A DNA stretch of 64,000 bases from Candidatus Marinacidobacterales bacterium (GTDB lineage Bacteria; Acidobacteriota; Vicinamibacteria; Marinacidobacterales; SMYC01). Below are positions 5,699 through 13,436 of the stretch, one piece after another. The translations under genes and the position numbers were made by a program. The notes under the pieces were generated by a model, which was not told the DNA's origin, ran no database searches, and worked only from the letters and a program-made list of their open reading frames with translations. Numbering within the stretch: position 1 is the first letter of the stretch; each line of letters begins with the position of its first letter. Location: the NCBI GenBank assembly GCA_965237955.1, contig OZ250169.1:7648001-7712000 (forward strand). The letters are read 5' to 3'.

Positions 5699-5905
5699 CT
5701 AAGGTCGTGGCGCTGTCGAGAGTGGGTGGACTGCACCATCGCTATGAATGGCGCGACGCCGCGTAGCGCAGTTTTCTGTAACGAACGACTGGTGGCCGCA
5801 GCCGTCGACAATGGCGTTCACCAGCTCCTGAACGGCTGGCCCTGTAGTCCCGGGACCGTTTCGCGTGCGTCGCCCTCGTTTTCGTCCTCGCTTCTCGCTT
5901 CGCAT
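5699..5905 (-). pseudogene. Possible remnant of an rve-family transposase N-terminal region
   Basis: KRGRRTRNGPGTTGPAVQELVNAIVD resembles the RRKPGPKGPSxELIxAIV segment of such transposases and lies at the GC/AT boundary. Weak. Confidence 0.3.
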
Positions 5906-5978
5906 GGCCTACTTTCTCGATTGGATTAATAATGACGAGGCACAGCTAATTTCAACATCAACAGAAGGAGCAAGAAGC

Positions 5979-8489
5979 GTGAAAGAAAACAGATTCATGA
6001 TGAAAACCATAATTGTTACGATTATTTTTTGCACCCTTTTTTCATTGAGCCTCTATGGACAGGAGAGACTTTCAATGAATAAGGGATGGAGCTTTAAATA
6101 CATTGCTCCGGATAGTAAAGAAATAGAACCAGTCTTCAACAAGTACTTCTATAAGAATGCTCAGATGAACCCTATAGGGTGGAGCCGGGATGAGCTAATG
6201 CAACTTTCTTACGATGGTTCTACATGGAGAACAATCAATGTTCCTCACGATTTTGTTATTGAAAGTGTACCGCTTAAAGGTATGACTGATGCAAATCGGG
6301 GATTCTTTGAAAGAGGCATAGGGATATACAGGAAGATATTCGATATTTCCGCATCTGATAAAGGAAAACGCATCTGGATCAGATTTGAAGGAGTAACTCG
6401 TGATGCCCAGGTATTCCTTAATGGATTTAAGTTATTGGAACACAAAAGTGGTTACACCCCCTTCAGAATAGATATAAGTGATGTAGTACGTTACGGACAT
6501 CAGAAAAACGTTTTGCTTGTGGTATGCGATTCCCGCCAATGGGAGGGTTGGTGGTATGAAGGAGGCGGTATTTATCGTCCGGTATATATGGAAAAGTCAG
6601 GAGGCTCTCTTTATTTTGAGCCGGATAGTATAGCAGTTAACCCAATTCTTTCAGCAGATTATACCTCGGCGAATGTCGAAGTTCACTATACAGTTCAGAA
6701 CAGGGAAAGAAGAAGCAGGACATTCGCACTCGTAACAAGAATTATCGACCAGGAAGGGGAAGAGGTTAATTCTTCTTCAGCAATATTTGACATTGAACCA
6801 TGGAGAAAAATAGATCGCCGGATGGCGCTGAAAATAAATTCCCCAAAACTTTGGTCCTTGGAAGAGAGGGACCTGTATTTTGTTGAATCTGAGATCAAAG
6901 AATCCGGTTTAACGGTTGAAAGAAACAAAACCCGTTTCGGTATCAGACAAATTGTTTTTGATGCTGATAAAGGACTTCTCCTCAATGGCAAACACGTCAA
7001 AGTTATGGGAGCAGCCGCACATCAGGATAATGGAAGTGTTGGAGTTGCGGTTCCTGCTGAAATAATACGCTATAGAATACAAACCATGAAGAACTTTGGA
7101 TTCAATGGTTATCGTAGTGCACATAACGCTGCAGCTCCGGCATTGTTAGATATCTGCGATGAAGAAGGTATGCTGGTTATGAATGAACAGAGAATACCTG
7201 AGACCAGCCCCAGGTATCTCGAAGAGATGCGCGAAATTATCAAGAGCTCGAGAAATCATCCATCAGTCTTTATCTATAATCTTGCGAATACAGTGACCCC
7301 AGTTGCCGATACCGATTTTTCATTCGTTGAAGGATCGATCTCAACCTTAATGCAGGAAATTGCGAGATTAGATCCACAGAAAAGGGCTGCAACAATGAAT
7401 GCTAATTTAAGGAAGCCCCATGAAGAAGGTGAAAAGAGTGTAAGCCGTAAAGAATATCTGAGACCTACAGGTCGAATCCTGGATGTTGTCAACTATTACG
7501 GTGGTGACAAGTATGCTTATGAAGGCAAACCGATAATTAAGGTTGAAACAGGTGCCGGGAGGTTTACAAGAGGAATTTATGAGACGAACAAGGAAAAGTT
7601 GTGGGTCTCTTCGATTCCGAACTGGAAAACCCACGAACGGATAAAACGATTTATGACGACTGACGAGGTCTCAGGGGCATTTGTGTGGACCGCTTTCGAT
7701 TATCGTGGGGAGCCTACACCATATAGATTCTTCCCAGGAGTCAGCAGTCAATGCGGTTTGTTTGACTTATGCGGTTTTCCTAAAGATCTGGTCTACTTTT
7801 ACAAAGCGGTTCAAACTCATGAACCGGTGCTTCACCTTTTTCCCCATTGGAATTGGAAAGGCAGGGAAGGAGAAATGATCAAGGTTTTTTCATATTCAAA
7901 CCTTGAGGAGGTTGAATTATTACAGGACGGAAAAAGTCTTGGTAAACAAAAAGTTATGCCTTTCGAAAATCAAAGCTGGGATGTAAAGTACAAACCTGGA
8001 ACACTGATTGCCAAAGGATACAAAGATGGCAAACTCGTTCTTACCGATAAGGTTGTAACATCAGGAGAACCTTATTCTGTGAGGGTGTCCGGGTATAAAA
8101 ACAACTTAAAAGCTGATGGAGAAGATGCAGTTACCTTAGAATTTGAAATTCTTGATAAGAACGGTACTGTTTGTCCGAATGCAGATAACATTATTAACAT
8201 TACAATCAAAGGTAATGGTCATTTACTGGGTGTTGATAATGGCAGTCCCACTAATCTTAATCCGACAAAACTTCCTAAAGTCAGGGCTTTTAGCGGGCTC
8301 TGCTCAGCCATTGTACAGTCAAACGAAGAAGCCGGAAGTATAGTTATTACAGCCACTTCAGATGGCTTAAAAACCGGAGTTCTTGAGATAGAAACCATTC
8401 CGGCTGAAATTAGGCCTGCCGTGAAATCAGAACTGATGGTAGAGGATTATATGTTCTTCAGGAAACCAGATGGTTGGAGTTTTAAGTGA
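5979..8489 (+). CDS. Glycoside hydrolase family 2 (beta-galactosidase-like), secreted, AT-rich
   Basis: AAGGAG RBS 8 nt before GTG 5979; signal peptide; INVPHDF, WWYEGGGIYR, GFNGYRSAHN, RNHPS, FVWTAFDYRGEP, HLFPHWNW; DUF4982-like C-terminus. Confidence 0.9.
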   Translation: MKENRFMMKTIIVTIIFCTLFSLSLYGQERLSMNKGWSFKYIAPDSKEIEPVFNKYFYKNAQMNPIGWSRDELMQLSYDGSTWRTINVPHDFVIESVPLKGMTDANRGFFERGIGIYRKIFDISASDKGKRIWIRFEGVTRDAQVFLNGFKLLEHKSGYTPFRIDISDVVRYGHQKNVLLVVCDSRQWEGWWYEGGGIYRPVYMEKSGGSLYFEPDSIAVNPILSADYTSANVEVHYTVQNRERRSRTFALVTRIIDQEGEEVNSSSAIFDIEPWRKIDRRMALKINSPKLWSLEERDLYFVESEIKESGLTVERNKTRFGIRQIVFDADKGLLLNGKHVKVMGAAAHQDNGSVGVAVPAEIIRYRIQTMKNFGFNGYRSAHNAAAPALLDICDEEGMLVMNEQRIPETSPRYLEEMREIIKSSRNHPSVFIYNLANTVTPVADTDFSFVEGSISTLMQEIARLDPQKRAATMNANLRKPHEEGEKSVSRKEYLRPTGRILDVVNYYGGDKYAYEGKPIIKVETGAGRFTRGIYETNKEKLWVSSIPNWKTHERIKRFMTTDEVSGAFVWTAFDYRGEPTPYRFFPGVSSQCGLFDLCGFPKDLVYFYKAVQTHEPVLHLFPHWNWKGREGEMIKVFSYSNLEEVELLQDGKSLGKQKVMPFENQSWDVKYKPGTLIAKGYKDGKLVLTDKVVTSGEPYSVRVSGYKNNLKADGEDAVTLEFEILDKNGTVCPNADNIINITIKGNGHLLGVDNGSPTNLNPTKLPKVRAFSGLCSAIVQSNEEAGSIVITATSDGLKTGVLEIETIPAEIRPAVKSELMVEDYMFFRKPDGWSFK

Positions 8490-8503: not shown

Positions 8504-8583
8504 TCAAGTTCGGAGATGTTCGGTGATGAAGGTGATCACGCGGAGCTCGCCGCCACACTGACATTTCAAAAACTCCAAGACCC
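8504..8583 (-). pseudogene. IS91-like (Y2) transposase C-terminal fragment
   Basis: LEFLKCQCGGELRVITFITE resembles the C-terminal CPxCGGxMRVIAFIT motif; truncated by the neighbouring IS end. Confidence 0.5.
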
Positions 8584-9845
8584 CGTCCTGTGCCAAAACT
8601 CGGCCCTTTTGAAATAGGCCATAAATCAGCAACTTAGTGTCTGTGTTTGCGACCGGGCCAAGGGCCGTGGGCTTTACAATCGTCTTGGGCGGGCGGGTCG
8701 TCACCATGCAGATGACCACCTAGTCGAGAGCGAATATCGAAGCGTGTGCCTGAAGCTGTTTTCACGCTACGCCGAGCGGGCCCACCAAGGGGCTACCGTC
8801 GCCGGCGACCATCTACGCGGCACGGCAGTAGTAGTTGAGAATGCCCCCCAGTCGCTCTCGCGACACGATGGGGCCAGCGTCATTCGCGCTTGCCGGCAGA
8901 GGTGTGAGGAGCTCGTTGCGGAGACCTTGGTGGTTCCGTTCTGTGTGATAGTGCACTACGTATTCGGTTACCGCTGTGCGCAGGTGTCGCTCACTGAGAG
9001 GTACGAAGCGGTCGAGACACTCTCGACGTATGGAGAGAACGAATCTTTCCGCGTATGCGTTCAGATTCGGACTATTGGCGGGAAGGCGAAGGGGCTTCAC
9101 GCCTGAATCTCTCAACAGCCCACGTATTGCCTCGGTGAATAGCGGGTCCCGGTCGTGGATGAGGTATCGCTTGCCAAGGAGGAAACCATCCCACATGTCA
9201 GTGAGGTTTCTTGCAACCTGCTTCATCCACTCCCCGTTGGGGTCCGACGTTATCCCACCGATGCACACGCAGCGAGCGCAGCGAGTGGCGATATCGATGA
9301 CAAACAGGACATGGTAGCGGACGAGCCCGAACGGGTTCACAACCTCGACGGTGAACAGGTCTGTCGCAGCGATGGCGCCCCAATGAGCCTTGATGAAGGT
9401 GCTCCACGACATGCTCTTGCCCCGCTCCGGGGCAGGAGCGATACCGTGGTCGGCGAAGATCCTCTTGATAGTGTTGCGTGCAGAAGCGTAGCGGGTGTGG
9501 CAACGGACGCAATCTGGGCCAGCGCCTCGCGGCCCAAAGACTGGGCCTTGACCGCGAGCCTGCGCCGCTCGTCGTCCGAGAGCCTGAGACGCTTGCCCCG
9601 AAGCCCGGCTCGGAGCACACGGTTCTCCTCTTGCAGGTAGTCGATCACATCCTGCTGCTGGCGGTTGACCCAGCCAGCTAGAACGAGCAGTAGGAATTGC
9701 ACGTGGTACGTCATCATGGACCTGAAGATAACACCCTCGGGCCAGACGATTGTAAAGCCTACGGCCCTTGGCCCCAGCGCAAACACAGACACTAAGCTGC
9801 TGATTTATGGCCTATTTCAAAAGGGCCGAGTTTTGGCACAGGACG
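8584..9845 (-). mobile_element. rve-type (IS481-like) insertion sequence bounded by 102-bp inverted repeats
   Basis: IRs at 8584-8685 and 9744-9845 (CGTCCTGTGCCAAAACTCGGCCC..., 5 mismatches) enclose the transposase. No target duplication is visible. Confidence 0.8.
8813..9717 (-). pseudogene. rve integrase-core transposase with internal deletion/frameshift near 9480
   Basis: N-part [36 protein letters not shown] and C-part with DDE core ([33 protein letters not shown]) are in different frames; the HTH linker is missing. Confidence 0.85.
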
Positions 9846-9955
9846 CGGTTCTCCTCTTGCAGGTAGTCGATCACATCCTGCTGCTGGCGGTTGACCCAGC
9901 CAGCTAGAACGAGCAGTAGGAATTGCACGTGGTACGTCATCATGGACCTGAAGAT
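9846..9955. repeat. 110-bp direct repeat of 9620-9729 (second copy of the transposase 5' end)
   Basis: Identical sequence cggttctcctcttgcagg...catggacctgaagat at both places. Confidence 0.9.
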
Positions 9956-10115
9956 TGCGTATTCCGGGGCATCGTGAACGCAGATTCCAGCCGAAGGTGA
10001 ACATCCATTCCAAAGCATCGTGAACACGGATTCCGGGGATCGTGAACATCGATTCCGGGGAAGGTGAACACGGATTCCAGGCAACGTGAACGCCGGTTCC
10101 GGCATCGCGAACGCT
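9956..10115 (+). mobile_element. IS21-family left end with seven 20-23-bp tandem transposase-binding repeats
   Basis: Begins TGCGT, then ATTCC(N4-5)A(T/A)(C/G)GTGAAC units starting at 9961, 9984, 10007, 10030, 10052, 10074 and 10096 (last two more degenerate); followed by the istA 5' end. Confidence 0.85.
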
Positions 10116-10175
10116 CATCGATAGCACGTTTCAAGGCAACTCTAGGTCGTACCCGGAAGGAGGACGATCCAGGAA

Positions 10176-10355
10176 ATGGCAGCTAAGAGGTTATCGATGA
10201 GAAAAATACGAGAGGTTCTAAGGTTAAAGTACGAGCTGGGTTTTACTCACCGCATGATCGCAAAGGCACTTCGCGTGGCGGTCAAATCCACTGCCTTGCG
10301 GCGTTGTCGATTGCGAGGGCAGCGGTTCCAGCGTTCGGACTCCAGTGCTCCATAG
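10176..10355 (+). pseudogene. istA: Truncated IS21 transposase IstA (N-terminal HTH only)
   Basis: GGAAGGAGG upstream; MAAKRLSMRKIREVLRLKYELGFTHRMIAKALRVA is a typical IstA start; homology is lost after about 35 codons. Below the ORF-track size cut-off. Confidence 0.8.
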
Positions 10356-10375
10356 CTTCTCATCTGGGGTTGTCG

Positions 10376-10647
10376 TGAGTGCGGGCGGCCTGGCGCAAGC
10401 CCGAGATTCGGCCAGTAGATTCGATTCGAAGCGACCGACGACCTCATCTACGTCACGGTCAATTCTTGTCGATGCCGCTGAACTAGCGCGCATGCTAGGC
10501 ATCAAACTCTCCACCGTCAGAGCCTGGACGAGCGAAAAACGAATCCCGTTTCGAAAATTTGGAAGAAATGTTCGCTATGAACCGGCGAAGGTGCTAGAAC
10601 TTTGGGAGGAAGTATCTCCAGATGGCTCTCTACCGTCGGACAACTAG
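10376..10647 (+). CDS. Excisionase-like HTH (Xis/HTH_17) protein; start uncertain
   Basis: LVDAAELARMLGIKLSTVRAWTSEKRIPFRKFGRNVRY; overlaps the integrase start. Confidence 0.75.
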
Positions 10648-11693
10648 CGGACCATGGTACGCCGATTACTTCGACCAATTCGGCAAGCGTAAACGCCAAT
10701 CGCTCAAGACGACCAACAAGAGAGAGGCTGAACGAAGACATCGTCGCATTCTCAATCGAGTCGAGGATATCAAGCTTGGTGTGGCGCGCCCCGAACCCCC
10801 GAAGCTCCTGACCTTCTGTGAGTTCGCCGACAAGTACCTTCGTGACCATGCCTCGAAGAAGCAGGACGGCGGAAGAATGGACCGCATCCGGCTACAAAAA
10901 CATCTCCGTCCGCGATTCGGAACGAGACCTCTTGCAGAGATACACCGAGAGGATATTGCCAGATACCAGGCCGATAGAATGATGGAGAAAGCAGCGCCCG
11001 CAACTGTCAATCGAGAGACGCAGTTACTGAAGAGTATCTACTCCAGGGCAATCGACTGGGGCTTTGCCTACGAGAATCCAGCTCGAGGCGTGAAGCTTCT
11101 ACGCGAGAACAACAACAAGGAACGGGTGCTATCGCAGGAGGAGGAAGAGGCGTTGCTTGGCGCCGCGCGCACGAGTCGTCAGCCGAAGTTGGCGGCGTTC
11201 ATTATCCTTGCTCTCAACACTGGCCTTCGTAGAGGAGAACTGCTACGACTGGAATGGCGCGATGTTGACCGAGAACATCGCCACCTTGTCGTGCAACGGT
11301 CCAAAAGCGGGAAGTCTCGGCGGGTGCCGCTGAACTCAGTCGCGATGGACGCGGTCGAAGAGTTGCAGCCGGAAGCCTCAGGGAGGTTGTTCGATTTCGG
11401 CACGCAGGTATCAAAAACAACAACCAAGGCTGCCGAGAGGGCGGGGCTCAAGGGCGTCACGCTCCATACGTGCCGTCACACATTCTGCAGTCGGCTCGTA
11501 GCTCCGCGGGGCAGACCTCGTAACGGTGCAGACTCTGGCGGGTCACGCCACTATCGTGACGACGATGCGATATGCTCACGACGTGGCTACGAAAGAAGCG
11601 GTCGAACTACTGGAGCCTGCGCGCAACGACATGTCACACAAGCGTCACAAAGTGCTTCAGTTCAAGAAAGCGAAGACGAAGAACGCTTCATAA
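10622..11693 (+). pseudogene. Phage-type tyrosine integrase with +1 frameshift at about 11501
   Basis: TGLRRGEL, SKSGKSR and HTCRHTF are in one frame; LRGADLVTVQTLAGH...TTMRYAH (catalytic H and Y) continues in the +1 frame to TAA 11691-11693. Confidence 0.9.
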
Positions 11694-11713
11694 GTGCCTG
11701 CATTCATTCATCT

Positions 11714-11811
11714 GGAAGTGACTGGGGTCTGGTGGCCTCCTCGGACTTCAAATCCGGTGGTCCTTGGTTAATCCCTGGGACGGTGGGTTCGATTCCCACG
11801 CACTTCCGCCA
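11714..11811 (+). tRNA. selC: tRNA-Sec (anticodon UCA)
   Basis: GGAAGTG/CACTTCC-GCCA acceptor, 6-bp D stem with TGGT loop, GGACTTCAAATCC anticodon arm (TCA 11748-11750), long variable arm, GTGGG-TTCGATT-CCCAC T arm. Confidence 0.95.
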
Positions 11812-11818
11812 ACGCGCG

Positions 11819-12106
11819 ATGAGCGAGAACGACGGACCGGTCGAGCTTCCCATCGAGGACAGCATCGATCTCCACACGTTTGCTCCACGGGACATCCCGG
11901 ACGTCGTGGAGTCCTACCTCGAAGCAGCGCACGAGGAAGGGCTCGAAGAAGTCCGCATCATCCACGGTCGTGGGAAAGGCGTTCAAAAAGAACGCGTGCG
12001 TCAGGTCCTCGAAAAGAACGACCTCGTAGCGCATTTCGAAGAAGCAACATACGACCGCGGAGGCTGGGGCGCTACGGTGGTGATCTTGAAGCGCGGCGCG
12101 CATTGA
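11819..12106 (+). CDS. Smr/MutS2 C-terminal domain protein
   Basis: IDLHTF, VRIIHGRGKG, GGWGATVV; ATG 7 nt after the tRNA CCA. Confidence 0.9.
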   Translation: MSENDGPVELPIEDSIDLHTFAPRDIPDVVESYLEAAHEEGLEEVRIIHGRGKGVQKERVRQVLEKNDLVAHFEEATYDRGGWGATVVILKRGAH

Positions 12107-12131
12107 CAATATACTCAATATGATGCAAAAT
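12103..12131 (+). promoter_or_regulatory. Candidate sigma70 promoter for the TA operon
   Basis: TTGACA-17 nt-CAAAAT in an AT-rich patch; predicted +1 falls at about ATG 12138 (leaderless). Confidence 0.45.
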
Positions 12132-12137
12132 AAATAC

Positions 12138-12401
12138 ATGACCAAGGATGCTGCTATGACGATCCGAATTCCCTCGTCTCTGAAACGGAGGCTCGAGGCG
12201 CGTGCCGAGGAGCAACATCGATCGCTCTCGGCCCAGGTTGCCGCGGATCTGGAAAGCGTGCTCGATTCGCTCACACAGAGTGGTGTGGAGGGCCGGTTTC
12301 TCGGACTTTACGAAGGAACGGCGGTACCGACAGATGACGACATCGAAGAGGTTCGTAGCCTGCTGTGGGGGAGCATGAGCCGTCTCGAGGAGCGTGTCTA
12401 G
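12138..12401 (+). CDS. Ribbon-helix-helix antitoxin
   Basis: MTIRIPSSLKRRLEARAEEQHRSLSAQV RHH motif; overlaps the PIN gene. Confidence 0.75.
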   Translation: MTKDAAMTIRIPSSLKRRLEARAEEQHRSLSAQVAADLESVLDSLTQSGVEGRFLGLYEGTAVPTDDDIEEVRSLLWGSMSRLEERV

Positions 12402-12789
12402 CTACGTTCTGGACACGCATGCGTGCGTGTTCTCTCTCGCCGCTCCGCGCAAGCTAGGACCCAAGGCGAGAAAAGCATTGGTCTCGGTCGAGGCGGGTGG
12501 GAGTGAGGCGTGGATTCCCGCCGCGGTCGTCGCGGAAGTCGTTTTGTTGAGGGAGCTCGGGCGAATCGAGATCGGTCTTTCGCACCTCAAGACCGCCATG
12601 GAGGAAGCTCCCGGATTGCGCTTCCTTCCTATGGATCTACGTCAGCTGGATGAGTTCGCTGCGCTCGGCGCGATTCGGGATCCGTTCGACAGACTCATTG
12701 TGAGTGCTTCCCGAGCTGTCGGGGCTCGACTCATCACGAAGGACGACTCCCTGCAGGAACAAGGTCTGGTTCAGACGGTGTGGTCTTGA
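12394..12789 (+). CDS. vapC: PIN-domain (VapC-type) toxin
   Basis: YVLDTHA, E in VVAEV, DPFDRLI, LITKD. Confidence 0.85.
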   Translation: MSSYVLDTHACVFSLAAPRKLGPKARKALVSVEAGGSEAWIPAAVVAEVVLLRELGRIEIGLSHLKTAMEEAPGLRFLPMDLRQLDEFAALGAIRDPFDRLIVSASRAVGARLITKDDSLQEQGLVQTVWS

Positions 12790-12992
12790 TGTCACCGCTT
12801 TCCACGACGAGTTCGTCAAGATCGCAAGAGCTGAAGCGCGTCAGCCTGAAACCGTGACTGTTGGCGCGTGATAAAATATACTGTGACTTCACGAATGACC
12901 GAGGTGGAAAAGCGCCGCCAACGTCGCACGTCGGCTCCGACCCGTGTTCTCCGAGGTACGCCAGAGCCGCGTCAAGACGACGTGATGCCTCG

Positions 12993-13436
12993 ATGTCACC
13001 GGCTGAGCGGATGGCAATGGTGTGGCAGCTTACGGTCGAGTGCCTCGCTTGGGCAGGTGCGGATGCAAACGAACTCCGACTTCAGGGGCACGTTCGCGCC
13101 ACCAAAGAGCTGGGTGTGTGGGTAGAGGCGTCGCCGGAGAATGCCGAGCGGGTATACCGAGCGCTCGCCGTCTTTGGGGCTCCACTGGACGATCTGACGG
13201 TGAAAGACCTGGCCTCCTCGGACCTGATCTTCCAGATTGGAGTTCCTCCACTGCGCGTCGACATCATCACGTCCATTGATGGCGTTGAGTTCGTCGATGC
13301 CTGGCCCGAGAGAGTGTCGTCGGAGTACGGGGATCAGCCGGTTCACGTACTGTCGCGCCGCGATCTCATCCAGAAGGCTGCCGGTCGACTCCAGGATTTG
13401 ACCGATGTCGACGCCTTGGAAGGTGGCGGCGACTAG
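12993..13436 (+). pseudogene. Deletion-fused remnant of a small protein and a nucleotidyltransferase (MNT-like)
   Basis: MSPAERMAMVWQLT...LRLQ is joined directly to GHVRATKELGVWV...GVPPLRVDIITSIDGV...KAAGRLQDLTD; the NTase N-terminal GG/GA motif is missing. Confidence 0.6.

Follow-up and report, generated by a model that had tools for sequence, protein, structure and literature searches.

A decayed integrative element of reversed polarity probably supplies the 5' half of the only tRNA-Sec gene in a Marinacidobacterales bacterium

The only selenocysteine tRNA gene (selC) of the Candidatus Marinacidobacterales genome under study (G000; one contig, 8.13 Mb) most probably constitutes the attR of a decayed integrative element whose crossover, of reversed polarity, fell in the anticodon loop. 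On this view the element donated the DNA upstream of the gene as well as its first 42 nt, and both are now locked in; selC would then be permanently transcribed from element or insertion sequence (IS) DNA. We put the probability of this reading at roughly 80%. In the proposed course of events, strand exchange by a tyrosine integrase likely took place within the anticodon loop of selC, as suggested by the point at which identity ends, which would have placed the element 5' of the gene and likely donated the 5' half and upstream DNA. The integrase gene was later frameshifted, and attL may have been lost through IS-driven deletion and rearrangement. With a frameshifted integrase gene and no attL found, the element should be unable to leave its present position. 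The features of the locus are as follows, in coordinates of the window, that is, the whole 64,000-nt stretch of DNA analysed; positions on the genome contig carry the prefix C1.

8580-9849, minus strand: multicopy IS with an rve integrase-core transposase (rve_3 match) and long terminal inverted repeats
9956-10282, plus strand: end of a second multicopy IS with a truncated transposase start and 22-bp tandem repeats; 47 genome copies, no Pfam match
10375-10647, plus strand: xis-like HTH_17 gene (PF12728, E 1.2e-9), single copy in G000
10622-11504, plus strand: tyrosine integrase, N-terminal 294 codons (PF00589, E 1.5e-20; PF24624; PF22022)
11505-11693, plus strand: C-terminal part of the integrase, out of frame with the preceding part and covering the region of the catalytic His and Tyr (three-frame translation)
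11633-11649, plus strand: arm-type site doublet of 11-bp period, GTCACA-5-GTCACA, 116 bp left of the anticodon loop
11698-11755, plus strand: att identity block (putative attR), about 16 bp of leader followed by selC nt 1-42, down to and including the anticodon loop
11714-11811, plus strand: intact tRNA-Sec gene, selC (ARAGORN; Rfam tRNA-Sec, 72.6 bits, gathering cut-off 47)
11819-12106, plus strand: smr-domain host gene (PF01713, E 1.9e-22), kept as the 3' neighbour of selC

As a sequence-only reading of this DNA had proposed, the xis-like gene and the integrase gene lie on the strand of selC and run into it, the C-terminal integrase frame ending with a TAA (11691-11693) 20 bp before G1 of the tRNA (ARAGORN, Pfam and frame reading). 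The HTH_17 gene is likely an excisionase or recombination directionality factor; the gene itself stood up to scrutiny while its start moved from 10376 to a GTG at 10375, and its end (10647) overlaps the integrase start (10622). The first integrase frame contains the N-terminal region, the core-binding domain and the catalytic R, K and HxxR, and a one-base frameshift near 11505 falls past HxxR and ahead of the catalytic His and Tyr residues. With P0001, an intact 356-aa homologue of 94% identity and like C-terminus, tblastn splits the match to the G000 gene over two frames; what remains is a pseudogene. Two studies, P1 (runs X1 and X4) and P2 (run X2), yielded contigs that span the frameshift site with 0 differences and 0 gaps, which rules out an assembly error; none of the listed pieces of run X5 covers this point, and G000 may come from the very sample of X1. 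The frameshift also opens a 494-codon stop-free frame (10622-12106) that spans the whole tRNA and is in frame with smr; this is probably a chance event, and a ribosome on such a frame would cross the tRNA.

The present left edge of the element remnant is the second IS end, presumably IS21-like, whose debris abuts xis and whose other genome copies continue past 10282 with different sequence. The rve IS (inverted repeat at 8580-8722/9707-9849; transposase segment in 37 genome copies) is foreign to the original element. One contig of run X1 (record 5, 1921 nt) aligned over 1456 nt up to 10279 and left 465 bases unaligned, and alternative left flanks may thus exist in the population. Beside the IS cluster, a glycoside hydrolase family 2 gene (5865-8489) has 40-43% GC in a window of 60-65% GC and was likely acquired recently. 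On the 3' side, smr starts 7 bp after the CCA of selC, and a smr homologue follows selC in 11 of 20 relative regions. Between smr and TRAP transporter genes, positions 12107-13436 hold an RHH and PIN toxin-antitoxin pair with its own promoter (TTGACA-17-CAAAAT) and one more ORF; since the transporter region directly follows smr in G017 and G008, this segment is an insertion 3' of smr.

The displaced counterpart of the selC 5' half was found in a relative, G012, where a homologous integrase remnant occupies the same place before selC. A second selC 5' half (-12 to +42, 54/54 identical) lies 7.3 kb upstream on the other strand, its identity to selC breaking 3 nt past the anticodon loop, and the att block of G000 is 98% identical to this fragment over 57 nt; the block was likely supplied by the element, judging from these alignments. 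Together with the 146 bp before it, the displaced half matches the DNA ahead of selC in two integrase-free congeners of G012, with 91% identity in G018 and 89% in G017. The earlier proposal that the integrase exchanges the 5' part of selC is thus supported for this integrase clade, both by an attL in this relative and by the comparison with island-free genomes; the exchange also cuts the gene off from the DNA that used to precede it. The fragment was present in 1 of 19 family genomes and is inverted there, along with tRNA-Ala and the middle of the integrase gene, between oppositely oriented IS copies (which we take to be IS6-like) that abut both integrase halves. Flipped back, the segment would read tRNA-Ala, upstream DNA, attL, element, integrase and selC; because this sole attL of the clade is inverted, the original layout is a reconstruction.

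GTCACA repeats resembling arm sites had also been pointed out before selC. The exact pattern G[GT]CACA-N5-G[GT]CACA occurs four times in G000 on both strands, and none of the three remaining doublets adjoins selC sequence; with one mismatch allowed, 0.75 matches are expected by chance in the window. The doublet is therefore real but not significant by itself in the window, and its support comes from G012, where both arms bear a doublet, at -116 (attR, integrase side) and +123 (attL arm) from the loop centre.

The geometry recurs among the closest relatives of the integrase. In a class-wide search of 301 genomes, 79 matched P0001 at E 1e-20 or better, and G000, G012 and G015 alone exceeded 60% identity; in this comparison all three integrases are co-oriented with selC and end 21-24 bp before it. 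The two close homologues of known position thus both end before selC, as the reading of G000 had called for, which argues against an integrase aimed at an unrelated site. Together with P0001 and P0002 the three form one clade in a quick tree (SH-aLRT 100) whose deep branches lack resolution and which is silent on the direction of the polarity flip and on the kinship of the G227 integrase described below. A representative search added P0121, P0122 and P0126, of which P0122 matches the G012 piece; like P0001 and P0002, these are sequences without genomic context. No further close clade member was found in a metagenome scan (best 80 of 88 loci), a viral scan (2 loci) or the best 80 of 506 loci of a genome scan, and the selC-half pattern had 0 matches in viral contigs.

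No attL was found in G000 itself by blastn of selC, exact pattern search or an ungapped whole-genome scan, and the displaced fragment predicted for this genome was accordingly not recovered; the best ungapped match to the selC 5' half elsewhere was 27/42. A 16-bp match to selC positions 1-16 at C1:1465930-1465945 (E 0.81) was rejected as chance, as it falls at the start of an opposite-strand gene, presumably oxygenase-like, with no arm doublet. Neither was there a second, full selC at the far end of which the present copy would be a duplicated att, since tRNA-Sec occurs once among the 55 tRNA genes that ARAGORN called in the whole genome. The G000 genome is scrambled around selC and the ancestral upstream neighbours are dispersed: in 15 of 20 relative regions tRNA-Ala(GGC) precedes selC, but G000 has it at 0.92 Mb, the block that came beyond it at 7.80 Mb and selC itself at 7.66 Mb. 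Across relatives, the interval from tRNA-Ala to selC ranges from 0.17 to 16.8 kb, a variability that indicates an insertion hotspot. Classical 3' selC fragments of 24-28 bp were seen at +1213, +1059 and +1585 from selC in G018 (L058), G016 (L064) and G021 (L072), respectively, so selC has been targeted from both sides. G015 (L056) carries, about -2911 to -2810 from selC, the displaced 3' part of some other tRNA gene and, after it, one more GTCACA doublet, the remains of a separate element in the same interval.

Integrase-like scars before selC in several relatives are the new part of this analysis. When leaders were compared with that of G000, all 300 shuffles were beaten by six of the 16 relatives examined from the family (G005, G009, G011, G012, G015 and G018) and by 0 of 6 from the sister family, in a comparison that omits G007 (an assembly without selC) and G014 and that used crude shuffles over about 46 comparisons. 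The protein-level shuffle test was passed only by G009, G011, G012 and G015, and the leaders of G005, G017 and G018 and of the G012 attL did not exceed shuffles at that level. The G011 scar is a piece of the Tyr region with TATGCT at -43, in M-R-Y-A codons, and the leaders of genus g6 have TACACT at -115, in V-T-L-H codons, both -10 candidates. A co-oriented gene in G011 ends at -145 and could read through. The g6 leaders may be older scars, or native DNA copied by the element. That second option belongs to an alternative in which the geometry is as described and the leader is captured host DNA, the g6 'scars' being native leaders that the element mimics. The identity block indeed reaches 12-16 bp upstream of G1 and is common to the integrase-free G005, G017 and G018, the g6 leaders have their own -10-like TACACT, and when they were translated and compared with the integrase C-terminus, 16, 112, 19 and 21 of 200 shuffles were as good. 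We nonetheless consider the alternative unlikely, as the G009 and G011 leaders match integrase coding DNA (z 16.7 and 12.1) and protein (0/200 shuffles), the G011 match spans the catalytic Tyr region and not a host leader, and G018 matches the HxxR-coding DNA of G000 (z 4.7, 0/300 shuffles). A broader proposal, which we advance as doubtful, is that reversed-polarity elements hit selC repeatedly and that the decayed 3' ends of their integrase genes were domesticated as a permanent tRNA-Sec leader and promoter, with -10 boxes in catalytic-motif codons, while intact members would reset selenoproteome output by promoter exchange.

The most far-reaching claim of the sequence-only reading, that excision and integration of the element toggle selC and hence the selenoproteome, appears highly improbable for G000. 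Much would respond to such a switch: selA, selB and selD are over cut-off, of 26 AhpC/TSA matches, eight carry a single in-frame TGA in place of the Cys codon (C1:7196488, 2917207, 7826398, 5653830, 5975066, 4321040, 1530101 and 5215989, two of them identical copies), and an FdnG-type gene reads ARL-TGA-H. The family is selenoprotein-rich, with 4-8 TGA-containing AhpC/TSA genes per relative tested, and this count is unusually high. The selD gene (G000:C1:4040942-4041856) lies inside a 750-aa open frame, a fusion with an N-terminal domain, and has Cys, not Sec, at its active-site motif. The separation of the gene from its earlier upstream DNA, the existence of the intact integrase P0001 and the X1 contig with a different left flank would likewise suit a switch. 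However, the G000 integrase, frameshifted in two studies, lacks in-frame catalytic His and Tyr, its only other tblastn match within G000 is 31% identical, no attL and no directly oriented attL/attR pair was found in this genome, and the ancestral flanks are dispersed. Furthermore, the decayed or scarred G012, G015, G009 and G011 keep TGA-containing AhpC genes, as does the integrase-free G013. Even in an intact element the tRNA would be whole in both states, which limits any effect to changes of level or promoter.

As had been remarked, no native promoter is visible: a consensus scan from 10983 to the tRNA found no sigma70-like site, and with a matrix built from G000 tRNA upstream regions the best site in the 260 nt before selC scored 4.9, equalled or bettered by 43% of random windows. 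No site stood above background before selC in G000, G012 or G015 with this matrix, although several extended -10 promoters that look native escaped it as well. Among the selC leaders of 22 relatives plus the G012 attL, 14 bear a -10-like hexamer no more than 45 nt from G1; G000, G012 and G015 have none closer than TATGCT at -143, in the codons for the catalytic Tyr. Over this candidate, six consecutive synonymous codons are unchanged between G000 and G012 (38/104 overall; p = 0.12, not significant). Read-through from xis or the IS end is an equally possible source of selC transcription. The RNA runs, available as contigs, contained 7%-12% of words. Of the claimed dependence of selC on the element or on its excision, transcription from element or IS DNA is probable in light of the sequence context, and excision falls away, given the frameshifted integrase and an attL that was not found. 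Because selA, selB, selD and TGA-containing genes are retained, selC is probably expressed. That it is instead effectively silent, its promoter removed by insertion and decay, is very improbable: although no promoter rises above background, a terminator-like hairpin lies within the integrase gene (11175-11196) and no stop codon interrupts the frameshifted frame between the integrase and smr, the tRNA remains whole, with the 5' half typical of the family, selA, selB, selD and at least eight TGA-containing genes are kept, and the allele is present in two studies.

Reversed polarity was also found in a complete element. G227 (L192, G227:C1:1085931-1102375) has a 16-kb reversed-polarity island at tRNA-Leu(CAA) with a 35% identical integrase, a directly oriented 5' fragment of 53 bp that lies 16.3 kb ahead of the tRNA, 11-bp tandem repeats on both arms, and TGCTAGGAT, an extended -10, 33 nt before tRNA-Leu(CAA) on the element side. 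Its integrase frame extends into the tRNA, and its cargo includes terminase-like and primase-like ORFs (labels from translations). Among the best 30 class-wide integrase loci, 22 were convergent with a tRNA or tmRNA, four co-oriented and four without one nearby; 21 of 112 class-wide loci had no tblastn match and were left out of the orientation classes. The best 80 of 506 genome-scan loci comprised four co-oriented, 10 convergent, one with the tRNA before the integrase and 65 with no tRNA nearby, and none of these four co-oriented loci had a tRNA fragment within the locus. Distant integrases co-oriented just 5' of tRNA-Arg(CCT), Arg(TCT), Thr(CGT) and Lys(TTT) at L200, L212, L217 and L247, with no fragment inside the fetched loci, are further candidates for the reversed geometry. 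The convergent majority set against the co-oriented few points to one integrase-to-att layout with the target flipped. Such a flip may be permitted by the symmetry of the anticodon stem-loop, whose dyad symmetry is described in PMC8371274.

Several known systems resemble this arrangement in part. The classical selC islands (LEE, PAI I536, SHI-2 and phiR73) share the target gene, but are inserted on its 3' side, so that the native promoter stays where it was. SpyCI/mutL and SXT/prfC are examples of regulated gene integrity. Under that concept (PMC10111431), a host gene can be expressed differently when an element sits at its 5' end, a likeness to the present case, but such elements regulate by excision or lack a replacement piece, whereas the G000 element probably brought a replacement half and is predicted to be unable to excise. 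Of the islands in Islander, 159 of 3919 have a 5' tDNA fragment (Hudson, Lau and Williams, PMC4383910), and 5' recombination is considerably rarer (PMC6563490, citing Zhao and Williams 2002). Islander 5'-fragment islands share with the elements here a tyrosine integrase, a tRNA target, a displaced 5' fragment, a gene restored by element DNA and, we infer, an anticodon-centred site. They differ in that the target here is tRNA-Sec and that G000 has a broken integrase and no attL found, hence the Islander signature is absent from G000; the G012 fragment, being inverted, would fail the Islander orientation filter. We found no report of a 5'-side selC element in the literature, mostly outside subscription papers and outside the Islander per-island lists, and one may be among the 159.

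A further likeness in geometry is with the pTN3/TKV4-like integrases of Thermococcales, whose attB is the 5' half of a tRNA gene (PMC8371274; Cossu et al., PMC5495485). The promoter of the integrase then drives the tRNA, which is described as uncommon among bacteria (review by Badel et al., PMC8371274). In both cases, the restored tRNA is cut off from its original promoter. The likeness concerns geometry: those are archaeal suicidal integrases with attP inside the integrase gene, which integration splits, whereas here attP lies just past the integrase stop, the arm doublets are of lambda-like type, and the integrase gene was broken by a frameshift and not by integration, P0001 being whole.

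The G000 element is a real, decayed member of this known rare geometry (Zhao-Williams/pTN3), with the displaced attL found for its clade in G012 and not in G000, and the switch, the exciting claim, fails in G000. Results here add a clade of bacterial integrases whose target is tRNA-Sec, entered on its 5' side, and provide for it an att map fit for use (putative core in the anticodon loop, doublets of arm sites at -116 and +123) and an intact integrase, P0001, for testing. If the scars before selC are promoters, integrase coding DNA would have been recycled as the promoter of a translation gene. The locus also illustrates a long-term cost of the geometry, as the loss of attL leaves the single selC of the host with mobile-element DNA upstream.
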